Part shown: positions 1 through 35,631 of the stretch, piece after piece
How positions within the stretch are numbered: position 1 is the stretch's first letter
Layout of the letters: every line of letters begins with the position of its first letter
Virus record (IMG/VR): IMGVR_UViG_3300046786_000269
Span: 1-35,631 of that record
Direction: 5' to 3' (one strand)
Length of the DNA stretch: 35,631 bases
DNA from: a virus
Lineage: Duplodnaviria > Caudoviricetes
Program-made: the position numbers and the translations under genes
Notes under the pieces: model-generated
The model's input: the letters and a program-made list of their open reading frames with translations, nothing else
What the model was told of the DNA's origin: nothing
Database searches by the model: none

Positions 1-127
1 CCTGTGCGTAAGGTGCACAAAGAAAGAAAAGAAAATCTTTTGTATTGTCGCTGTGCGTGTGTCGCTTGCGATGTAGCACTAGGTGGGAATGAATACCGCT
101 AAGCGACCTAGTGTTACCCTTCCTCGC
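1..127. repeat. Exact 127-bp direct repeat with 35136-35262 (circular overlap; unit genome about 35135 bp)
   Basis: Identical from cctgtgcgta to tcctcgc; first mismatch is C128 vs T35263. Confidence 0.95.
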
Positions 128-287
128 CTGTGCGGTATTAGCTAAAGCTAGTGGACGGGAGTTACATAGAATTTATTCAAAAGAATTTACACTTTTTTGT
201 AACTTTCTCGCAAATATTTCCTAAGTATTTGAAACTTATACGAATATATCTCTAAAGTATTTTCGTCATAGTGTCGAATCTTCTCCC

Positions 288-317
288 TTGCGAGACGTAT
301 CATACATAGTGTAGGAT
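288..317 (+). promoter_or_regulatory. Putative sigma70-type early promoter
   Basis: TTGCGA(288-293)-18 bp-TAGGAT(312-317); the variant copy keeps TTGCAG-18-TAGGAT. Confidence 0.5.
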
Positions 318-363
318 TGAGCCATGGGGTTGAGTTGACCCTATCAACTAAGAGGATGACAAC

Positions 364-597
364 ATGACAATATATACGCCGGACACTTGGGCCGAAGAGG
401 AAGCGAGGATATGTTACCCTGTTGGGTGGCGACACTGGGAAACAGAGGATTGGTATGAAGCTCGGAAGTCGAAAGACATCGAATATTATAGCACAAAGGT
501 ATTTGCAAAAGAGCCCGATGCCGCTGAATTGATAGCTAAATTTAAGGCGGCATGGGAGGAAGCGCATATAGAGTTGCAATGGTCAGAAGATTATTAG
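364..597 (+). CDS. Hypothetical early protein (77 aa, Trp/Glu-rich)
   Basis: ORF preceded by strong RBS tcaactaagaggatgacaacATG. Confidence 0.8.
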   Translation: MTIYTPDTWAEEEARICYPVGWRHWETEDWYEARKSKDIEYYSTKVFAKEPDAAELIAKFKAAWEEAHIELQWSEDY

Positions 598-606
598 GGT
601 GACAAC

Positions 607-729
607 ATGAATCACAAAAGATTTAGACAACAAAACACGGTCTCTGGGACGTTTATGGGTGACTTTTCAATAGCTTGCATCATAGGTCTGCTATGGTACG
701 GCATCTTGACGGTGTTTTTTACATTCTAG
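607..729 (+). CDS. Small membrane protein (40 aa, MNHKRFRQQNTVSGTFMGDFSIACIIGLLWYGILTVFFTF); not in ORF track
   Basis: RBS agggtgacaacATG; C-terminal hydrophobic helix; the variant copy at 35583 differs by 4 synonymous and 1 non-synonymous change, supporting coding. Confidence 0.8.
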   Translation: MNHKRFRQQNTVSGTFMGDFSIACIIGLLWYGILTVFFTF

Positions 730-732
730 CTA

Positions 733-760
733 TTGCGATGAACCTTATTCATGCTAGCAT
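733..760 (+). promoter_or_regulatory. Putative sigma70-type promoter with inverted repeat in spacer
   Basis: TTGCGA(733-738)-16 bp-TAGCAT(755-760) preceded by TGc; atgaa-cctta-ttcat inverted repeat. Confidence 0.5.
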
Positions 761-795
761 ACATCATACAGGTAGTAATTAACTAAGGGGACAAT

Positions 796-1068
796 ATGTA
801 TAAATCAATAAAAACGAAAGCGGAGTTAAAACGCCTAGCGGTGGGCACTCGCCTCATCATGACTAATAACATGGTAGGTCGATTCGATGTTCCTTCACGC
901 ACCATCAAGCAAATACGCTCTAATGACATCATCATGAGCTTAGAAGACGGGCGTGAGAGCTATTCGCAACTAAACGACGTGAGGCTTGAGCCGACCGAAG
1001 AAGGGTTTAAGTTAATCGACCGTGAGACGGGCGTATTGTGCGTAGAATATAAAGTTTTAGCCAACTAA
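796..1068 (+). CDS. Hypothetical early protein (90 aa)
   Basis: RBS aactaaggggacaatATG; fits gene packing. Confidence 0.8.
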   Translation: MYKSIKTKAELKRLAVGTRLIMTNNMVGRFDVPSRTIKQIRSNDIIMSLEDGRESYSQLNDVRLEPTEEGFKLIDRETGVLCVEYKVLAN

Positions 1069-1077
1069 GGAGACAAC

Positions 1078-1515
1078 ATGGAACCGACAAAAGACATAAT
1101 TCTTGATGCGCTTTACAAGCATATTGCACAACGTAGCGGCATCGATGCCAGAAACTACTTTGATAGTTGGCGTGATACTGAGGGCCGTAAGGCGTTTAAC
1201 GCTGAATACCGTGAGATTCTTCGTGAGGGCCGTGAAGCTCGGATGCTACTCCACGCCGTTCGCACCCGTGACATTAGTGCCGACGAGATACTTGCGGCTT
1301 CGAAACGTGCGTTTAGTGGTCGCTTGTCGTGGAACGCTGAGAAAGCCCGTTGGGATTACTGTACCGGTCAATATTTCCCCACGGAGTATCGTGCGGCGGC
1401 TTGCGCCGTCTTAGCTTCGGCACTGTGGCGCTACATGGCTGATGGCGGTGGGGATGTCCGTAGGTGGGCAAAAGAGACCTTTGGGCGTGGCGTTCAATCT
1501 CGATGGTTTAACTAG
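1078..1515 (+). CDS. Hypothetical phage protein (145 aa)
   Basis: RBS caactaaggagacaacATG; protein-like composition (WDYCTGQYFPTEYR). Confidence 0.85.
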   Translation: MEPTKDIILDALYKHIAQRSGIDARNYFDSWRDTEGRKAFNAEYREILREGREARMLLHAVRTRDISADEILAASKRAFSGRLSWNAEKARWDYCTGQYFPTEYRAAACAVLASALWRYMADGGGDVRRWAKETFGRGVQSRWFN

Positions 1516-1584
1516 GTGCCTAGCAGGGGCCGCCCCACGGGGCGGTTGACTGGTACGCATGAAGCGACCAATTAAGGGTATTTT

Positions 1585-2007
1585 ATGAAAACAAGACGAC
1601 AGCCAATGCGGGATCATTCTTCATTTATTACTATGCAAGAGTTAAGGGATAAAATCTTGACCCACAAAACGAACGCTTTAAGCCTAGAGCGATGGTCGAA
1701 GATACTTCAAAAGGAAGCACCAAACTCCGTAGCCAACGAACGGCACAAGGCTTTCATGGCTGAATCAACGGACATCGACAAAGGCCTGAAGCAGATGATC
1801 AACGGCTTAGAGCTATATTGTAGCGGCTTTAGAAGCCGGTTCGACTCCGCAATCGGTAAAGATGCCTTCTTGGGCAACGGCGTAGCGGCAGTAATTGAGG
1901 CGTTGTTTGTTCTGCTTCAAGGCCCCGGAAATTGGGACAATGGAACGGTGGACGCCACTTTGCGACACATCGCCGACCTCAACGTCATCGATTCTATAGA
2001 GCAATAG
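1585..2007 (+). CDS. Hypothetical protein (140 aa)
   Basis: RBS caattaagggtattttATG; globular composition. Confidence 0.75.
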   Translation: MKTRRQPMRDHSSFITMQELRDKILTHKTNALSLERWSKILQKEAPNSVANERHKAFMAESTDIDKGLKQMINGLELYCSGFRSRFDSAIGKDAFLGNGVAAVIEALFVLLQGPGNWDNGTVDATLRHIADLNVIDSIEQ

Positions 2008-2015
2008 GGGGCAAC

Positions 2016-2351
2016 ATGAAAGCATTAATTTTTACCCTTGCACTCATGCCGACAATGGCAACGGCTCAGGGGCTAATCGGCGAACTAGAAGCTCCAACGG
2101 GGCCAGTTAATAGCCTAGAGGCCCCGTATTATCCACCGCCGTATGGCATAGCCATCCAGCCGGTGTTACCCGTACCTCGTGACAGAGGGCCGTGGGGGAC
2201 CGGCTACAGCATCATCACAGAGACACGGGAGCGGCCTGACCTGGGACGGCAACTATTGGGCGATTATGGCGCAACTCGGCAACAGACGATCCAGAAATGG
2301 GTACCGAATGATGCTTTAGGTAATCCGATCAATCCATACGGCTTAGAATAG
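2016..2351 (+). CDS. Secreted Pro-rich hypothetical protein (start reassigned to 2016)
   Basis: RBS tagggggcaacATG; signal peptide MKALIFTLALMPTMATA/Q. Confidence 0.75.
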   Translation: MKALIFTLALMPTMATAQGLIGELEAPTGPVNSLEAPYYPPPYGIAIQPVLPVPRDRGPWGTGYSIITETRERPDLGRQLLGDYGATRQQTIQKWVPNDALGNPINPYGLE

Positions 2352-2430
2352 TCCTTTCGCTACCGTCTCAAGTCAGGCGGCGGCGTGGGCGCTAGTTGAA
2401 GGCTCAGTTTAACTAAGGAGATAAAAGACA

Positions 2431-2643
2431 ATGAAAGCAATTAGTAACGTGTTTAAGTTTATCGTGGGCGTGATCGTACTGTGCTGTTCAGCCTGTACAG
2501 GCATCGAGATGGGCGGCAAAGTCGGGGTCTACCGTGTTGACGAGCGGCAGGAATCCAGCCGCACAAACGTCGAAAACAGGGTGCCTTTAAAGTGTTACTT
2601 TGTTGATTGCTACTCACACACACAGTCTAACGATCTTAAATAG
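2431..2643 (+). CDS. Putative lipoprotein (70 aa)
   Basis: RBS aactaaggaga; basic N-terminus, hydrophobic stretch and lipobox-like LCCSAC. Confidence 0.65.
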   Translation: MKAISNVFKFIVGVIVLCCSACTGIEMGGKVGVYRVDERQESSRTNVENRVPLKCYFVDCYSHTQSNDLK

Positions 2644-2651
2644 GTGACGAT

Positions 2652-2819
2652 ATGATCGAGAACATTAAACAACTACTATTTACGCCTACGGGCATTATCG
2701 TTTCGTTGCTTCACGTTGCTTTTTTCGTGGGGTGCGTGACGTGCTGGATCGGTATTCAAACACAGGTATTTGGTAACGATCCAGTAGAACAAGTACAGGC
2801 ATTAGGACGGCGCAAATGA
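2652..2819 (+). CDS. Small membrane protein (55 aa, MIENIKQLLFTPTGIIVSLLHVAFFVGCVTCWIG...); not in ORF track
   Basis: RBS aggtga; TM helix; ATGA overlap with next gene at 2816-2819. Confidence 0.75.
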   Translation: MIENIKQLLFTPTGIIVSLLHVAFFVGCVTCWIGIQTQVFGNDPVEQVQALGRRK

Positions 2820-3307
2820 GCCAGGGTCAAAAGCAGGGCGGCGGCGGTTTAGTCGCCTTGCTACTGGCGGCGGCGTTGTTTGTCCCACCAGCTAATAATC
2901 TGCGGTTCCATGTGCATCGCTTTTTCGGGCTCTACGTCGCACCTACACGAACGATAATCGAGAGTGAGGTTGATAGGGCGGCTGATGCCTGGGGCGTGTC
3001 TCGTAGCGTCCTACGGGCTTTGGTGCAGGTCGAGAGTAGTTACCGACCTGACGCACTATCTCCCGTAGGCGCTCGGGGTGTGGCTCAGATTATGCCGTTT
3101 AATGCAAAGCGGTGCGGGCTCGGTGACGACAGAAAGCTATGGGATGCGGTTCATAACGTGCGGTGCGGCGCTCGTATACTTGCAGAGGAATTAGACCAAC
3201 ACGGCGACTTAAAGAAGGCGCTTACGGTCTACAACTGCGGAAGGGTCAAATGTAAGGAGGGCGAAAGATATGCAAGCAAGGTAATTGCGCTTTCTCGTGT
3301 GATGTAA
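2816..3307 (+). CDS. Membrane-anchored lytic transglycosylase (SLT domain)
   Basis: ALVQVESS catalytic Glu motif, SPVGARGVAQIMP, ALTVYN; N-terminal hydrophobic anchor. Confidence 0.9.
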   Translation: MSQGQKQGGGGLVALLLAAALFVPPANNLRFHVHRFFGLYVAPTRTIIESEVDRAADAWGVSRSVLRALVQVESSYRPDALSPVGARGVAQIMPFNAKRCGLGDDRKLWDAVHNVRCGARILAEELDQHGDLKKALTVYNCGRVKCKEGERYASKVIALSRVM

Positions 3308-3342
3308 GACAAAGTAAATAGGTATTTTATCAGTAGGATTAT

Positions 3343-4197
3343 ATGAATAAGGAATTAACAGTAACAAACAATAGCCCGGTCGAGATGTTGGCTGCGCTTC
3401 GTAATACGGTGGCGCCAGGGCTTACAGATGCAGAGTTCGCACTGTTTGCTGAGATAGTAAAAAGCACCGGCCTAAACCCTGTCACTAAAGAGGTGTGGGC
3501 AATCAAAGCCGGTGGGCGTCTCCAACTCATGACCGGCATAAACGGATTCCTTCGTATTGCTAATAGCCATCCAGCTTATGACGGCATGGAGGTAGAATAT
3601 GAGTGGGATGGCAAAGCACTTATATCGGCAACGGCTAAAGTATACCGCAAGGATCGCCGGTTCCCATCGGTAGCTACAGCGTATATGGCTGAGTACAGCA
3701 AGCCGACACCAATATGGAAACAGATGCCGTCAGTTATGCTGTCAAAGTGTGCTAAGTCGCTAGCAATCCGTGAGGCGTTTATTCAAGAGCTAGGCGGCCT
3801 CTACACGGCTGAAGAGATGCCAAGCGAGTATGGGCATCACCACGCAAAGGCTGCGCCATCCATCGAGGTCAAAGTAGATGAGGAATTGATAGTCAGCCAG
3901 AAGACGGGCGAGGTATTGGGCGTAGTTAAAAAGGAAGCAGTCGTTAGACCAGAGGAAGATAACCTACCTGACTGGAACACTGCTGCCGAGGTAGTGGAAG
4001 ACGTTAAGCCAAAGGCTAAGAAGGGCCGTGCCGTGACTACTTACTATAACCTTGAGACGCTACAAGGTGATAAGCTCAAAGTAGCTGAGACGTACCTCGT
4101 AGCTAACAACGCCAAGCGTCTTACAGAGACGCATTGGAAGTCGCCTATACGCCTTGAGAAGTTAACGACCTGCATCGATGAGGCATACAATGAGTAA
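3343..4197 (+). CDS. bet: Phage ssDNA-annealing recombinase, Bet/RecT family
   Basis: GLNPVTKEVWAIK, TGINGFLRIANSHPAYDG, WKQMPSVMLSKCAKSLAIREAF, GLYTAEEM. Confidence 0.9.
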   Translation: MNKELTVTNNSPVEMLAALRNTVAPGLTDAEFALFAEIVKSTGLNPVTKEVWAIKAGGRLQLMTGINGFLRIANSHPAYDGMEVEYEWDGKALISATAKVYRKDRRFPSVATAYMAEYSKPTPIWKQMPSVMLSKCAKSLAIREAFIQELGGLYTAEEMPSEYGHHHAKAAPSIEVKVDEELIVSQKTGEVLGVVKKEAVVRPEEDNLPDWNTAAEVVEDVKPKAKKGRAVTTYYNLETLQGDKLKVAETYLVANNAKRLTETHWKSPIRLEKLTTCIDEAYNE

Positions 4198-4372
4198 GCC
4201 CATACCAGGACGAGCAAGCTATGACGCTGCGCCTAAAGGCTATAAGCGGCACACCATATTTATTCACGTCAAGTTGCTGGATAAGGTGCGCCGTGTAGCG
4301 GCAAAGGAAAACATCACTATCAAGCAGTTGATTGAGGAAGCTATTGAACGGAGGGTTGCCAATGACGATTAA
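4190..4372 (+). CDS. Ribbon-helix-helix DNA-binding protein (start reassigned to 4190)
   Basis: HTIFIH beta-strand followed by LLDKVRRVAAKENITIKQLIEEAI helices. Confidence 0.75.
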   Translation: MSKPIPGRASYDAAPKGYKRHTIFIHVKLLDKVRRVAAKENITIKQLIEEAIERRVANDD

Positions 4373-4631
4373 GACGTTGGGACAAATAGCAGAGGATGCG
4401 GTGACATTTGCGGAGGCGTTCGTCCCCAACGAATACCAAACGCAAAACGCTGCTGACTATGCGGAGGCGTATGCGGCAGGTGCTAGGCAGGTGCTTCAGT
4501 ACCTGGAGCAGTTTGCCGCACGGGTCAACGCCGTCATGCCTTTTGATAGCTCTAACGAGTTTGAGAAGGGACAAGTCGATGGTATCCTTTGGACACTAGA
4601 TGCGCTGAACGCCTTGTTCGGTAGAGATTAA
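4362..4631 (+). CDS. Hypothetical protein (start reassigned to 4362)
   Basis: RBS ggaggg upstream; overlaps previous stop. Confidence 0.75.
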   Translation: MTIKTLGQIAEDAVTFAEAFVPNEYQTQNAADYAEAYAAGARQVLQYLEQFAARVNAVMPFDSSNEFEKGQVDGILWTLDALNALFGRD

Positions 4632-4636
4632 CCTGC

Positions 4637-4712
4637 TGGAGTGTAGTTCAGTTGGCAGAACAGGCGACTGTTAATCGCCATGTCGTAGGTTCGATTCCTA
4701 CCACTCCAGCCA
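4637..4712 (+). tRNA. tRNA-Asn(GTT)
   Basis: 76-nt cloverleaf: acceptor tggagtg/cactcca, D stem gttc/gaac, anticodon stem ggcga/tcgcc with loop ctGTTaa, T arm gtagg-ttcgatt-cctac, discriminator G, encoded CCA. Confidence 0.95.
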
Positions 4713-4749
4713 ATAAAAAGCCCCGTAACGTGTTGCGGCGTTACGGGGC
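4712..4749 (-). terminator. Intrinsic terminator (minus strand)
   Basis: 11-bp stem gccccgtaacg/cgttacggggc; A-tract at 4712-4719 is a U-tract on the minus strand. Confidence 0.8.
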
Positions 4750-4782
4750 GAGGAACAGTGATGTGGGCACTGTCAGTAGTTC
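4713..4782 (-). ncRNA. Candidate ~70-nt small RNA 1
   Basis: Minus-strand promoter TTGCTC(4815-4810)-16-TGgTATTGT(4793-4788), internal hairpin acagtg/cactgt, terminator; no ORF. Confidence 0.5.
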
Positions 4783-4813
4783 CCACAACAATACCAGCCA
4801 ACAATGCTTGAGC

Positions 4814-4848
4814 AATAAAAAACGGCGCTAGGTTTTCACCTAACGCCG
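4814..4848 (-). terminator. Intrinsic terminator (minus strand)
   Basis: cggcg-c-tagg/ccta-a-cgccg stem whose C/A mismatch is a G-U pair on the minus strand; A-tract 4814-4822. Confidence 0.8.
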
Positions 4849-4890
4849 CTCAACTAAGGGGATACAACCGACAAAAGTTAGTATCTGCTC
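4814..4890 (-). ncRNA. Candidate small RNA 2 / 3'UTR carrying an anti-RBS sequence
   Basis: Hairpin 4861-4885, single-stranded complement of caactaaggg (4851-4860), then terminator. Confidence 0.45.
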
Positions 4891-4917
4891 TACTTGTACC
4901 CCATTAGACCTCTACAA

Positions 4918-5202
4918 TCAATCCAGATTCCACCCTTCATGCGGTTTTAATCGTGGTTCAACTGCATCATGTGATTGCGCTGCGAGTAGAGCGTAGTTCA
5001 TCACGAACCGCTCTCTGCGGTGCATCGTGTTGTCCACATACCATATCTCTACTTCGTACACGTTTCCCTCATGGTCTATCGCCTTGTAGGTGCCGTGCGT
5101 CCCAGTAACGTGCGTACTAATCGGCGGCAACTCCGGCATGATTGCGTAGAGTCGTTTGTGTAAATCAGTCAGGGATAATCCCTTGTAGTGCTTTTGCTGC
5201 AT
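4918..5202 (-). CDS. Hypothetical protein (94 aa)
   Basis: RBS aagga upstream on the minus strand; overlaps the upstream HTH gene. Confidence 0.7.
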   Translation of the reverse strand: MQQKHYKGLSLTDLHKRLYAIMPELPPISTHVTGTHGTYKAIDHEGNVYEVEIWYVDNTMHRRERFVMNYALLAAQSHDAVEPRLKPHEGWNLD

Positions 5203-5407
5203 GTCGTTTGTCCTTTAGTTGTTTCATTTCGTCGCCTCGTGCAATTAACCATGACTCGACTTCCAACAACCGGAATCGACGTACAGCGCCAATGCGAATG
5301 TGTGGCATCCCCTGTTTTACCAGCAATTCAAAACTGCTTTTCGGAATTGAAAAGTAATTCTTTATTACTGTGCTGCTGACGTATCCTTCGTTTTTCGTTT
5401 CGTTCAT
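5165..5407 (-). CDS. Excisionase/MerR-like winged-helix DNA-binding protein
   Basis: GMPHIRIGAVRRFRLLEVESWL wing motif; RBS aaggtg. Confidence 0.75.
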   Translation of the reverse strand: MNETKNEGYVSSTVIKNYFSIPKSSFELLVKQGMPHIRIGAVRRFRLLEVESWLIARGDEMKQLKDKRHAAKALQGIIPD

Positions 5408-5413
5408 ATAAAA

Positions 5414-5456
5414 ACACCTTGCGACATGATCGACCTCATGCTACATCACAGGTGTC
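5414..5456. promoter_or_regulatory. Divergent promoter/operator region
   Basis: TTGCGA(5419-5424)-17-TACATC with TGc; nested inverted repeats acacct/aggtgt and catga/tcatg. Confidence 0.5.
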
Positions 5457-5478
5457 TAATTGACAACAAGGAGATACA

Positions 5479-5781
5479 ATGGGCAAACCAAAAAAGGCAT
5501 TTCGCAATAAGGGAATCGACATAGCGGCTTGGGAAAATGACCGAGGCGGCGTGAGCTTTACCTTTCGCAAGACCTACAAAAACAAAGAAACAGGCGAATA
5601 TAAAGAGACTAAGTACTTGTTTGCTAACGACCTTAAAGACCTTCGTGACTTGATTACGGAAGTGCTGACATGGAACGAGACGTTGGCAGATAGGACGGAA
5701 CACGAGTACGCCGCTATAGCGTCTCCTGCACCGACCTACGTCGCAAAAGCCGCCGACATAGACGACGACATACCCTTTTAG
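5479..5781 (+). CDS. Putative ssDNA-binding protein with SSB-like acidic tail
   Basis: C-terminus DIDDDIPF; aromatic/basic N-domain (AAWEN...TFRKTYK). Confidence 0.7.
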   Translation: MGKPKKAFRNKGIDIAAWENDRGGVSFTFRKTYKNKETGEYKETKYLFANDLKDLRDLITEVLTWNETLADRTEHEYAAIASPAPTYVAKAADIDDDIPF

Positions 5782-5784
5782 TGT

Positions 5785-6270
5785 GTGAGGTCCATCATGC
5801 GAATTACGCTTGATTCTGCCGAAGCCTTCCATGCGGGGATGGCCGGTTACATGCGAATGTTCCGAGTGATGACCAATGGCTACAAAAGCCCGTTCGATGG
5901 CCTTGCGCTGTCGGACGGGTGGCGTAGCCACATCGAGGGGGCAATCGCCGAACTGGTGGTGTCCAAAGCCACTAACAGCTATTGGCCTGGTGCTACTTGG
6001 TTATTTAAAGACCAGAACGATGTAGGACCGTACGAGGTGCGCTACACCCAGTACGCTCAAGGTCATTTGCTGTTGTATCCATCCGATAAAGACGAGGCAC
6101 CATACATTCTCGTTACCGGCAAATATCCAGACTATCAAGTTGTAGGCTGGATTTACGGTCGATACGGGAAACACCCCGATTATTGGACGGAAGAAACCAA
6201 ACAACCCTGCTACAAGATACCTCAGACAGCATTGGAGCCTTATGAAACTTTACACACTACACACGGTTAA
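5785..6270 (+). CDS. Putative PD-(D/E)XK-like nuclease / conserved phage protein (start may be ATG 5797)
   Basis: GAIAE helix followed by DVGPYEVR pattern. Confidence 0.55.
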   Translation: MRSIMRITLDSAEAFHAGMAGYMRMFRVMTNGYKSPFDGLALSDGWRSHIEGAIAELVVSKATNSYWPGATWLFKDQNDVGPYEVRYTQYAQGHLLLYPSDKDEAPYILVTGKYPDYQVVGWIYGRYGKHPDYWTEETKQPCYKIPQTALEPYETLHTTHG

Positions 6271-6496
6271 TGACGGGAAATGGCAGATTAAGCTGTCGAT
6301 ACGCCGCAACCCGTCCTATGAGTTTGAGTTTGAGCCCAGGCCGGATATACGGGCGCTGGTTGAAACAAACTACGATGAGTCGCCGGAGGTATTGGCTAAG
6401 ATATTATTAGACTCTGTGCTGCATTGTGAGGCCGTAGAGGTCCACTTGCTGTGCGGTCAAGGCTTGTATATGGAGCGTGTAGAAAATGACCGTTAA
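6242..6496 (+). CDS. Hypothetical protein (84 aa)
   Basis: RBS ggag; overlapping gene packing. Confidence 0.7.
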   Translation: MKLYTLHTVNDGKWQIKLSIRRNPSYEFEFEPRPDIRALVETNYDESPEVLAKILLDSVLHCEAVEVHLLCGQGLYMERVENDR

Positions 6497-6671
6497 GCCA
6501 ATTATGTTTCAAGACCAGTTTTGGCGTGATTTGCAAGCAAGCCACAAAGCGGCATTAGAGCGAGTCGCACAAAACAATGCGGTGACTGCATCAGTCGATG
6601 CCGTTATCCTTCAAGTGTCTAGCGAGTTTAAGGAGATTTATGCCGCTTACGAAAAAGGGTGCGAAGATTAG
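6486..6671 (+). CDS. Hypothetical protein (61 aa)
   Basis: Overlapping gene packing. Confidence 0.6.
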   Translation: MTVKPIMFQDQFWRDLQASHKAALERVAQNNAVTASVDAVILQVSSEFKEIYAAYEKGCED

Positions 6672-6843
6672 ACAGGCGATGGAAAAGTTTTATGGCAAAA
6701 AAGAGGGCGATGCCGTGTTTTATGCGTCAGAAAACAAAGGAAACATTAGCGGAGTTACGAAGAAGAAAAAGAAGCATGTAGAAAGCAAGGAGAAATATCC
6801 AGGCGAAAAAACAGAAACTCGCAAAGAAGAGGAGATGGAGTAA
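6640..6843 (+). CDS. Small basic phage protein (MPLTKKGAKIRQAMEKFYG...; start reassigned to 6640)
   Basis: RBS aaggaga; Lys-rich. Confidence 0.75.
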   Translation: MPLTKKGAKIRQAMEKFYGKKEGDAVFYASENKGNISGVTKKKKKHVESKEKYPGEKTETRKEEEME

Positions 6844-6844
6844 C

Positions 6845-7162
6845 TTGGTTAACTCACGTTGCAAGGGCGCAGTAGGAGAACGGGAGCTGGCGGCTAAACT
6901 CAAGGAACATGGGTTTAGCGCCAGACGTACCCAACAATTTTGTGGGGCCAACGGAGATTCTGACGTAGTTTGCACAGAATTAGCTGATTATCACATCGAA
7001 TGTAAGCGTGTTGAACGGTTAAACATTGACCAAGCGATGGACCAATCTTTGCGAGATTGCAAAGACAAAACACCCATTGTATGTCACCGGCGCAATCACA
7101 AGCCGTGGTTAGTCACGATGTACCTTGAGGACTGGCTACAGCTAGTAAAAGATGAAAGATAG
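6845..7162 (+). CDS. Holliday junction resolvase (PD-(D/E)XK type)
   Basis: SRCKGAVGERE, SDVV, HIECKRVERLNI motifs; TTG start after ggag. Confidence 0.85.
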   Translation: MVNSRCKGAVGERELAAKLKEHGFSARRTQQFCGANGDSDVVCTELADYHIECKRVERLNIDQAMDQSLRDCKDKTPIVCHRRNHKPWLVTMYLEDWLQLVKDER

Positions 7163-7499
7163 GGACTTAACCTTTCTAACTGAGCATGTCGGCCACCAGG
7201 CCACACCGGAGCAGTTGCTATGGTTAGCCGTCATTGACAGGGCGCTCGTAGACTACATAAAGTTTTACGACACTTTACACGCTAAACATCGTCGCTCATT
7301 AGACTGGTTTTTGTTTGAAGAAGATTCAGTACCAAACAACTTAGTCTATATCTGCGAGCAGTTATTTAACGATGTGGACGTTGTAAAAAGTATCCGTAAA
7401 CGTGCCGTTGCTTTGGCAAAAGGATACCTCCCTCAGCAAGAAATTGAGGACTACAAGCGCAAGCGGTACAGCTTGCGAGTCAAAAGCAAATACTACTAA
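7152..7499 (+). CDS. Hypothetical protein (115 aa), possible late regulator
   Basis: Last plus-strand gene; LWLAVIDRALVDY helix; regulatory role is positional inference only. Confidence 0.7.
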   Translation: MKDRDLTFLTEHVGHQATPEQLLWLAVIDRALVDYIKFYDTLHAKHRRSLDWFLFEEDSVPNNLVYICEQLFNDVDVVKSIRKRAVALAKGYLPQQEIEDYKRKRYSLRVKSKYY

Positions 7500-7681
7500 C
7501 GCTTCTTCTTCTTGTCGATTACTGACCAAGCTTGAGAAACGCCGTACAACACAGCGCCAGCTACTACAGGCTCTGCTGCGTGGACAAGGTTTTGAGCGTC
7601 GGACTCCTCAACGCCAATCGTAAGCAAGCCACCAGCCGCTAACGTGAGCAAGTGTCGGACGATGGATAAAAGTATCGGCAT
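7496..7681 (-). CDS. Putative holin (two TM helices, basic C-terminus)
   Basis: SIVRHLLTLAAGGLL...AWSVIDKKKKR; end of late operon. Confidence 0.7.
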   Translation of the reverse strand: MPILLSIVRHLLTLAAGGLLTIGVEESDAQNLVHAAEPVVAGAVLYGVSQAWSVIDKKKKR

Positions 7682-8472
7682 AATATACCTGCTGTTTTAT
7701 CAAAGTTTTTCAAACGGAAACCGCACTCTCTCTTTCGAGGGTCAACAAACGTACCACCAATGCCAGTGTTACAATTCATCCACGGTTCCCAATAGTAGCT
7801 AATAGCACAATGTCTGGAGTTAGCGACCCACCTTTTTACAGGCACCGTCGCACCGTCCAGCCCATCCATGTCCGTTATACACGGCTGAGACTCTGGCACA
7901 CTATAGCCGTGTCGTTCACAAACGAATCCCCTAAGACAACTTTGCCGGTGTGGATTGTCCACAAGAATACACCCAGGCAAAGAAGTAGATACCCTATTAA
8001 GCAAAACTCTTCGTGCTGGTCCATCGAGGTCACACTCCAAACATGGGCTGACGTAGCACTGAATGGGATTCTGCGCTTTAGCCAGTCGTTTTTTAAACCG
8101 TTCTAATACCGCATTAAATCGTCGATTAAGCCTTGAGCCTTGTATGTGGACTGCCTGACTGGCAGAAGCCTTAGAATAGCCGTATAGGACTTCATAGCGA
8201 CCACACCGCCGGTTACGCATACATGGCGAATTGATAAGGTGTACCCGAATCACTTTAGGGTTTGGTAACGCTAAAAGCTTGTCACCGCACGGACATTGAG
8301 CGTTGAACGTATTCTCAAGCCAACCGGTGACTACGGCATCCTGCGCTGCAAGGGTTTGTAATGTCGCTGTGCAATTCCATTCCTTATGACACATCGCTAA
8401 GTAACTAGGCGCTGCGTTTGCTGTCGATGCGTATAAAGATACCAACAGTATCGTTATAAGCAGTCGCATCAT
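7639..8472 (-). CDS. Secreted Cys-rich protein (277 aa) in the lysis cassette
   Basis: Signal peptide MMRLLITILLVSLYASTANA/A; 18 Cys. Confidence 0.8.
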   Translation of the reverse strand: MMRLLITILLVSLYASTANAAPSYLAMCHKEWNCTATLQTLAAQDAVVTGWLENTFNAQCPCGDKLLALPNPKVIRVHLINSPCMRNRRCGRYEVLYGYSKASASQAVHIQGSRLNRRFNAVLERFKKRLAKAQNPIQCYVSPCLECDLDGPARRVLLNRVSTSLPGCILVDNPHRQSCLRGFVCERHGYSVPESQPCITDMDGLDGATVPVKRWVANSRHCAISYYWEPWMNCNTGIGGTFVDPRKRECGFRLKNFDKTAGILCRYFYPSSDTCSR

Positions 8473-35135: not shown

Positions 35136-35631
35136 CCTGTGCGTAAGGTGCACAAAGAAAGAAAAGAAAATCTTTTGTATTGTCGCTGTGCGTGTGTCGC
35201 TTGCGATGTAGCACTAGGTGGGAATGAATACCGCTAAGCGACCTAGTGTTACCCTTCCTCGCTTGTGCGGTATTAGCTTTCGCTAAGGGACGGGGGTTAC
35301 ATAGAATTTATTCAAAAGAATTTTCACTTTTTTCTAAAATCACGCGAAAATGGTCCTAAGTGTGTGAAAATACAAAGAATAAAAGATTAAAGTTTTTTTA
35401 TCACAGTGTCGAATCTTATTACTTGCAGAGAGTATCATACATAGTGTAGGATTGAGCCATGGGGTTGAGTTGACCCCACCAACTAAGGAGATGTAGTTAC
35501 GGATTATGACGTGCCAGAAACCACCATTGATCGTGCAATGCAATTGGATGAACTTGAAGACATATAAACCAAGGGTGACAACATGAATTACAAAAGATTT
35601 AGACAACAAAACACGGTGTCCGGTACGTTCA
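35136..35631 (+). repeat. Second, diverged copy of region 1-655 (exact for 127 bp, then a variant allele lacking the 364-597 gene)
   Basis: Direct alignment by eye of both ends. Confidence 0.9.
35583..35631 (+). CDS. 5' part of a variant allele of the 607-729 membrane protein (truncated by window end)
   Basis: MNYKRFRQQNTVSGTF vs MNHKRFRQQNTVSGTF. Confidence 0.8.
   Translation, partial: MNYKRFRQQNTVSGTF

Follow-up and report, generated by a model that had tools for sequence, protein, structure and literature searches.

A candidate small RNA complementary to the lineage-specific ribosome-binding tag of the early genes in a tailed phage and its relatives

In the phage genome analyzed here, a copy of the ribosome-binding site (RBS) of the early genes stands in front of no gene at all and abuts a terminator of the opposite strand, which raises the question of what this orphan copy might do. 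The window, i.e., the whole stretch of 35,631 nt, is an entire ~35 kb phage record whose ends carry an imperfect repeat. Its rightward early block (364-4631, plus strand) harbors small unknown genes, SLT, a Bet-like annealase, and an Arc-like gene (4190), and a tRNA-Asn(GTT) gene (4637-4712, plus strand) closes this early operon. A leftward operon follows, opened by an Xis/AlpA-like HTH gene (5165-5407, minus strand; promoter-like site at 5466-5438), whose counterparts in relatives match Pfam HTH_17 above cut-off, and continued by orf94 (4918-5202, minus strand), which encodes an unknown protein. Downstream, the gene order comprises a rightward block from ssb to RusA and then leftward structural genes. 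Among the 45 window proteins scanned, no integrase, no polymerase, primase, or helicase, and, using PHROGs, no antirepressor was detected; a tyrosine integrase, the only integrase family searched in the relatives, was present in 1 of 20 related genomes. The host-genome scan pointed to no host, yielding a single match at 34% identity plus two contigs of ~1 kb.

Several further features of this genome were recorded. The end repeat (35136-35631) is identical to the region 1-500 over ~127 nt and then diverges, leading into a different first early gene behind the same AACTAAG tag, a pattern that points either to a chimera of strains or to a cassette exchange captured at the tag. Promoter-like sites of the TTGCGA...TAG(C/G)AT type recur in the early region (288-317, 733-761, and 5419-5447), the block 713-798 is kept in two related loci (L007 and L009), and divergent promoter-like sites overlap between the HTH gene and ssb. 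The last middle gene (7152-7499, plus strand) and the last late gene (7496-7681, minus strand) overlap at their stops, leaving no room for a terminator, so that late read-through could run antisense across the middle block.

The early genes of the window share an extended RBS tag, AACTAAGG.GA.ACAA..ATG, which is an asymmetric repeat located just 5' of start codons and conserved beyond the Shine-Dalgarno (SD) bases, as in repeats of the SAS type. The exact AACTAAGG occurs four times in 1-5500 on the plus strand, against 0.088 expected under a Markov model (maximum of 2 in 500), and is absent both from 5501-35135 on this strand and from the minus strand. An early-RBS motif opening no open reading frame (ORF) had been proposed at 4850-4868, and our inspection agreed: CG comes next, and ATG, GTG, TTG, CTG, ATT, ATC, ATA, and ACG are all absent from 4863-4882. 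A small plus-strand ORF starting from the orphan was ruled out, as the window has no start codon for it, and in relatives with inserted genes the ORFs at the orphan site are unconserved and vary in length. The exact match claimed with 781-791 was also found, AACTAAGGGGA being present only there and at 4852-4862. As to the near copies, these lie at 346, 1063, 1570, and 2411, and the copy at 5464-5480 matches only with a one-base gap. A CsrA-type GGA-loop sponge was likewise considered and ruled out by eye, GGA being lost from the loops of L073 and L082.

Read on the minus strand, the orphan copy lies within a predicted small RNA of 71 nt (RNA-1, from 4886 to ~4816), which comprises a 5' hairpin, a free anti-RBS seed, and an intrinsic terminator; the tRNA-Asn gene is its neighbor and not part of it. 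In the hairpin (4861-4885), the loop and 3' arm form the complement of the RBS spacer, and in the case of gene 1078 this complementarity extends to codons 2-5; a 12-mer at 4866 within the hairpin occurs elsewhere in the window only at 1082, in gene 1078. The seed, CCCUUAGUU (4852-4860), is the complement of the AACTAAGG tag, and its first nine bases exhibited unpaired probabilities of 0.87-1.0 in the short form starting at ~4886. The terminator (4816-4851) proved as real as first suggested, with its diagnostic U-G pair kept in 8/8 aligned sequences and two double changes in its stem, and it closes the leftward operon of the HTH gene and orf94 as well as RNA-1. In the eight sequences, 100% of the hairpin cells were paired, with one A-U to G-C double change, and short-form hairpin and terminator together reached 100% of cells paired with three double changes.

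The fold originally proposed (hairpin at 4861-4885, seed free) stands only for an RNA starting at ~4886 and fails for 4814-4917, which when folded whole is very stable and buries the seed (z=-5.5) by pairing it with 4894-4907, the unpaired probability being mostly below 0.25. Only in RNA reading through from the HTH-orf94 operon would this lock arm (4894-4907, minus strand) pair with the seed; 93% of its cells were paired in the eight sequences despite 11/29 identity, with one double change, and L009 also has the long-form pairing. We infer from these folds that the read-through RNA is locked and the RNA from its own promoter active, although G-rich discriminators could give part of the long-form pairing by accident. 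The idea of an always buried seed was dropped once comparative evidence placed the predicted +1 at ~4886, which makes 4887-4921 predicted promoter DNA outside the mature RNA. The corresponding predicted sigma70-type promoter (4921-4893, minus strand) combines the -35 hexamer TTGATT (4921-4916), a 17-nt spacer, and the -10 hexamer TACAAG (4898-4893), and it is weak in the window itself (p_rand 0.19), its -10 being without its last T. L009, L116, and L117 present TTGATT-17-TATGGT in the same register (p_rand 0.043 in L009), and the predicted promoters of L105, L111, and L047 are stronger than that of the window. Two sequencing runs gave no coverage of 4769-6300, which speaks neither for nor against the predicted RNA.

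Comparison of the window with L009 revealed 33/38 identical positions in the 5' part of the RNA, 11/29 in the 29 nt upstream, and 190/285 in the orf94 coding sequence. In the L009 clade, one seed base has changed from U to C together with A-to-G changes in both pairing partners, and the early starts of L009 and L117 read GATACGAC, in step with the seed; essentially two lineages are compared here, and the agreement is suggestive only. Searches against Rfam returned only tRNA at E<=5 for window positions 1-7700 and only tRNAs at gathering score for the loci of 10 relatives. In an annotated phage collection, the best 20 of 513 matches were of tRNA length only, and none of them covered 80% of the query.

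A second predicted unit (RNA-2, 4714-4781, minus strand) lies in tandem, with a hairpin, a short anti-SD linker, and a terminator (4720-4749). Its promoter, TTGCTC-16-TGgTATTGT (4815-4788, minus strand; p_rand 0.02), overlaps the end of the RNA-1 terminator, and the unit is kept in L008, L009, L042, L116, and L117. RNA-2 was rejected as a second anti-early RNA, with no early-gene enrichment (p=0.51). The close relative L008 carries an extra tRNA-Cys gene (L008:2020-2175) between tRNA-Asn and the RNA-2 terminator.

The original prediction held that motif-bearing starts should rank first among the targets of such an RNA, and the scan bore this out. Duplex energies including opening costs were computed for 60 starts, some late ones uncurated, and six of the top seven bear the tag itself or a sequence close to it; in order, the scan returned the starts at +1078, +364, -33770, +796, +5479, +2431, and -5202, the last being the tag-like start of orf94, itself a predicted target. 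The mean was -7.5 for early against -2.9 for late starts (p=0.003), and the late gene at -33770 owes its third place (-15.5) to loopy pairing. The best predicted target is the start of the early gene 1078, of 145 aa (1062-1093, plus strand; -20.3 kcal/mol), with a two-part pairing covering the RBS and codons 2-5; its product has 1044 relatives, and among the 120 listed none is named beyond 'hypothetical'. Further predicted targets, all on the plus strand, are the starts of the first early gene 364 (344-370; -15.6 kcal/mol), gene 796 (779-795; -11.8, including the exact 11-nt copy at 781-791), an SSB-like gene with a weak Pfam match, 5479 (5464-5487; -11.6), and the lipoprotein-like gene 2431 (2407-2431; -10.4). 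The predicted targets are unannotated early genes and not an icd/antirepressor message. Shuffles keeping the anti-SD core reached the top-three mean in 0/1000 cases and the best score in 1/1000, and the long form loses about 7 kcal/mol in the same scan.

The conservation of the unit was analyzed in 86 ssb-bearing loci, the window and 85 others, which form a redundant set. In 63/86 loci, a strict finder placed a matching terminator of the minus strand no more than 1.6 kb upstream of ssb, and a looser one recovered it in 6 (L061, L062, L065, L088, L108, and L109) of the 23 without; by eye, most terminators are then followed by an RBS-like stretch on the plus strand. Sigma70-like promoters were scored 18-65 nt from the stem, using a simple weighted hexamer consensus, for 62 distinct elements, which are related rows including a few non-focal terminators. 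Here, the minus-strand promoter outscored its plus-strand mirror in 59/62 elements, with one tie and two losses, and attained p<=0.05 against random windows in 48/62 and against shuffles in 35/62. Promoter scores >=16 were found for 21/26 focal versus 12/41 other terminators (33 loci; p=5e-5), and these 12 also turned out to be small-RNA-like units. Pairing begins no more than 5 nt from the predicted +1 in 19/20 orphan loci, and the anti-SD linker and the terminator come next, the anti-SD core being partly paired in some relatives (0.28-0.98 unpaired). The predicted RNAs are mostly 50-100 nt long, so that the family as a whole presents, as a prediction, the own promoter, intrinsic terminator, and size expected of a trans-acting small RNA. 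Unit and promoter are also present in relatives without a leftward operon ahead of ssb (L104/L105, L111, L027/L113, and L103), and in a distant clade bearing orf94 the complement of the GGGGAAAC tag forms the terminator loop on stems that vary.

An intact plus-strand gene starting at the site in relatives had been named beforehand as what would speak for a decayed cassette start, and such genes are partly there: in 12 loci (L022, L023, L024, L052, L055, L058, L059, L064, L078, L086, L095, and L106) the site is an intact RBS and ATG in frame with ssb, giving it an N-terminal extension. A minus-strand promoter is nevertheless carried by the same 12 loci, with its extended -10 box overlying recurring GYQ-type codons, and because of this promoter we read them as cis-plus-trans forms of the same RNA and not as proof of a fossil. 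Transcription opposite a target start, the hallmark of a cis-acting RNA, would occur in these 12 relatives and not in the window, where the site has no start codon. In another group (L018-L021, L027, and L028), a second, paralogous ssb-like gene precedes ssb, with a C-terminal helix similar to the extension found at the N-terminus of ssb in phages of the L022/L052 type. The unit has also been found displaced: L077, L081, and L092 carry an L058-like version at a distance of ~3.4-3.7 kb from ssb, inverted onto the early strand and facing ORFs of only 32, 23, and 3 aa, respectively, i.e., no conserved cis ORF. These moved units still pair best with their own tag-bearing (GGATATATG-type) starts, on which, being moved and inverted, they can act only in trans.

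The early RBS signature differs among relatives, with AGGTGACTA in L105/L111, AAAGGAGA..ACACTA in L107, TGGAGAC in L073/L079, GGGGAAAC in L017/L047, and GAGGGTA in L072, and each relative's element carries that relative's own early tag. The co-variation of seed and tag proposed as a check was thus observed. It was quantified in 30 loci with early starts called by our own simple caller (21 orphan loci and nine with ATG at the site). The own early starts ranked 1st-2nd of 30 for 14/21 orphan loci and only 5th-18th for the remaining 7/21 (L050, L051, L067, L091, L100, L102, and L110). For 15 orphan lineages, picked by eye and with kinship not tree-corrected, 0/200,000 permutations reached the diagonal of seeds against own early starts; 0/100,000 did so when duplex energy was used, and again 0/100,000 when the SD core was masked. 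Middle and late starts, available for 14 of the 15 lineages, exhibited no covariation (17,044/100,000 permutations reached the diagonal), and in the 12 loci where the site is a real ssb-extension start the covariation is trivial. The early region of L105 has a further repeat, CCGACAA, ahead of the RBS tag in several early genes, a word that also forms the hairpin-loop mirror in RNA-1 of the window.

A G-U wobble test gave the opposite indication. In the orphan lineages, 67 mismatches were compatible and 96 incompatible with wobble pairing (p=0.03), and at sites with ATG the counts were 60 versus 57; this result speaks against a seed tuned to its targets. The excess is driven by a seed C facing a target A: the window seed places CCCC opposite GGAG in most targets, and with 74 G/A versus 23 A/G mismatches the seeds often keep C opposite target A, near a 16S-like anti-SD.

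Weighing these observations, we favor the reading that the predicted minus-strand RNA is a trans-acting antisense repressor of early-gene translation, at a probability of roughly 0.65. That one RNA might act on the common early RBS, as first suggested, is backed by the duplex ranking, the covariation, and the conserved succession of promoter, hairpin, seed, and terminator; the wobble test and the 12 ssb-extension loci count against it.

These 12 loci, with their RBS and ATG in frame with ssb, are also what would be expected of a cis-only antisense RNA, or of the fossil RBS, of an adjoining ssb extension, the window's copy then being a leftover cut off from its gene when the HTH-orf94 cassette was inserted. 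The same phages do use cis-antisense units of like design: in 12/12 loci checked (L077:3868-4440, minus strand, as well as L081, L092, L095, L103, L106, L113, L058, L059, L075, L050, and L066), a leftward winged-helix gene of 155-238 aa has its start faced by a unit of a second class, again composed of promoter, seed, and terminator. This gene matched HTH_36 in 5/5 proteins scanned, two of them above cut-off, and the arrangement resembles the antisense control of replication initiators in plasmids, here in phages most of which have no integrase; tblastn with proteins of 12 relatives found no homolog of the initiator-like gene in the window. A leftover would hardly have kept the ORF-less copy better conserved than its flank and the adjacent coding sequence (33/38 against 11/29 and 190/285), nor does it account for a unit that follows the early tags across 15 orphan lineages, is retained after relocation and inversion, and sits in terminator loops where no ORF starts, and we regard this explanation as unlikely.

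Lineage-specific repeats at gene starts would also suit a protein-binding site, be it an operator on the DNA, as the L5 stoperators are, or a site on the RNA recognized by a nuclease or a translational repressor, with the orphan as an extra site or plus-strand decoy. Arc-like (4190) and HTH genes do lie beside the element, and the wobble test does not favor pairing. However, the orphan is bracketed by a promoter and a terminator on the strand that yields antisense and not sense RNA, the hairpins keep G-U pairs on that same strand, and the rest of the genome is without exact tag copies, all of which leaves a protein site distinctly unlikely. The retention of C opposite target A recalls instead an anti-SD RNA of generic type, directed chiefly against host mRNAs in a translation takeover, for which the match to phage starts would be a by-product; this we judge very unlikely, given that the covariation extends to the flanks of early starts, survives SD masking, and is absent for middle and late starts. 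Finally, that the locus is only a terminator whose hairpin stabilizes the 3'-UTR of the leftward operon, or of late read-through, yielding no separate RNA, agrees with the very stable, seed-burying long form (z=-5.5) and with scans of the window, in which the interval from the last late gene (7496) to the site contained no strong terminator on the minus strand, but it is most improbable in view of the units with promoter in relatives lacking that operon (L104/L105, L111, L027/L113, and L103) and of the covariation with early tags, which it leaves unexplained.

Short terminated antisense RNAs serving immunity or replication control are known from the P4 CI RNA and from plasmid CopA and RNA I, P4 CI acting by premature termination on its own leader. 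The class A units of the relatives, opposite a rep-like gene, resemble the CopA/RNA I type. The trans-acting repressor proposed here for RNA-1 has its closest parallel in C4 of P1/P7, described as a trans-acting phage RNA of ~70-80 nt that blocks an RBS by pairing, with the ant mRNA as its target and P1/P7 heteroimmunity resting on sequence-specific pairing (PMC12197685); C4 constitutes Rfam family RF01695 (PMC2864571). RNA-1 is like C4 in its pairing in trans over the RBS with lineage-specific seed/target pairs, as predicted in silico; unlike C4, it gave no RF01695 match, it is predicted to act on several early genes that are unrelated but share one tag, and neither antirepressor nor integrase was found among the 45 window proteins scanned. 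RNA-1 is C4-like in logic but multi-target, and is not a member of the C4 family. P22 sar and lambda OOP are 68-77 nt RNAs, each antisense to one phage message (PMC12197685); the cis versions in 12 relatives resemble them, whereas in the window no cis gene accompanies the unit, which follows a tag common to several genes.

On the side of the tag, the SAS of Cluster K mycobacteriophages is a private, asymmetric repeat that extends the RBS of non-structural genes, and its partner was left as 'either RNA or protein' in the available portions of the reports (PMC3203893, PMC12699233). The window's tag shares these properties, but differs in its motif (compared by eye with the consensus in PMC3203893) and phage group; moreover, a candidate RNA gene with a promoter and a co-varying seed is present here, whereas those portions of the reports put forward no antisense RNA, the word 'antisense' being absent from the accessible text of PMC12699233. 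Virulent-phage small RNAs have been described for PAK_P3 (sRNA1 and sRNA2), one of them between tRNA genes, for which trans action on tRNA T-loops or single genes has been proposed (PMC4933390), unlike the shared RBS tag predicted for RNA-1; sRNA2 was discarded as a precedent for RBS targeting, since its proposed targets are tRNA loops (PMC4933390). The literature covered, with most subscription journals outside that coverage, described no phage RNA that is directed against the RBS of several targets.

Taken together, the preferred reading of a trans-acting repressor can be laid out as follows. Seen in the sequence are a tag shared by the early genes and an ORF-less copy abutting a minus-strand terminator. 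Comparison suggests that host sigma70 RNA polymerase would start at ~4886 and yield an RNA of ~71 nt. Its free CCCUUAGUU toehold is predicted to nucleate on the tag, upon which the 5' hairpin would unzip over the SD and the spacer, reaching codons 2-5 in gene 1078, and so keep the 30S subunit off. Read-through from HTH-orf94 would hide the seed under 4894-4907, leaving only the own-promoter or processed RNA active. The RNA may then accumulate after injection, ending the early burst and silencing incoming kin with the same tag; we infer a role in delayed early shut-off, probably also directed against superinfecting kin. Such silencing of same-tag kin would explain the diversification of tags between close relatives.

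These considerations touch two open questions in the field, namely the shut-off of early genes in lytic phages and the purpose of private gene-start repeats such as SAS. Tentatively, and with somewhat less than even confidence, we suggest an RNA-only address system, in which mostly integrase-less phages would place a private tag on swappable early cassettes and shut off the set with one matching RNA; tag/RNA pairs would define immunity groups, and acquired genes would join once they gained the tag. Close relatives differ in their natural seed/tag pairs, of which there are at least 15, and this makes the proposal testable as a cross-repression matrix for which the host is not needed. If true, these phages would possess a protein-free multi-gene switch with built-in specificity, offering a set of orthogonal translation regulators, and the address system would also provide the SAS-type repeats of other phages with the partner they still lack.
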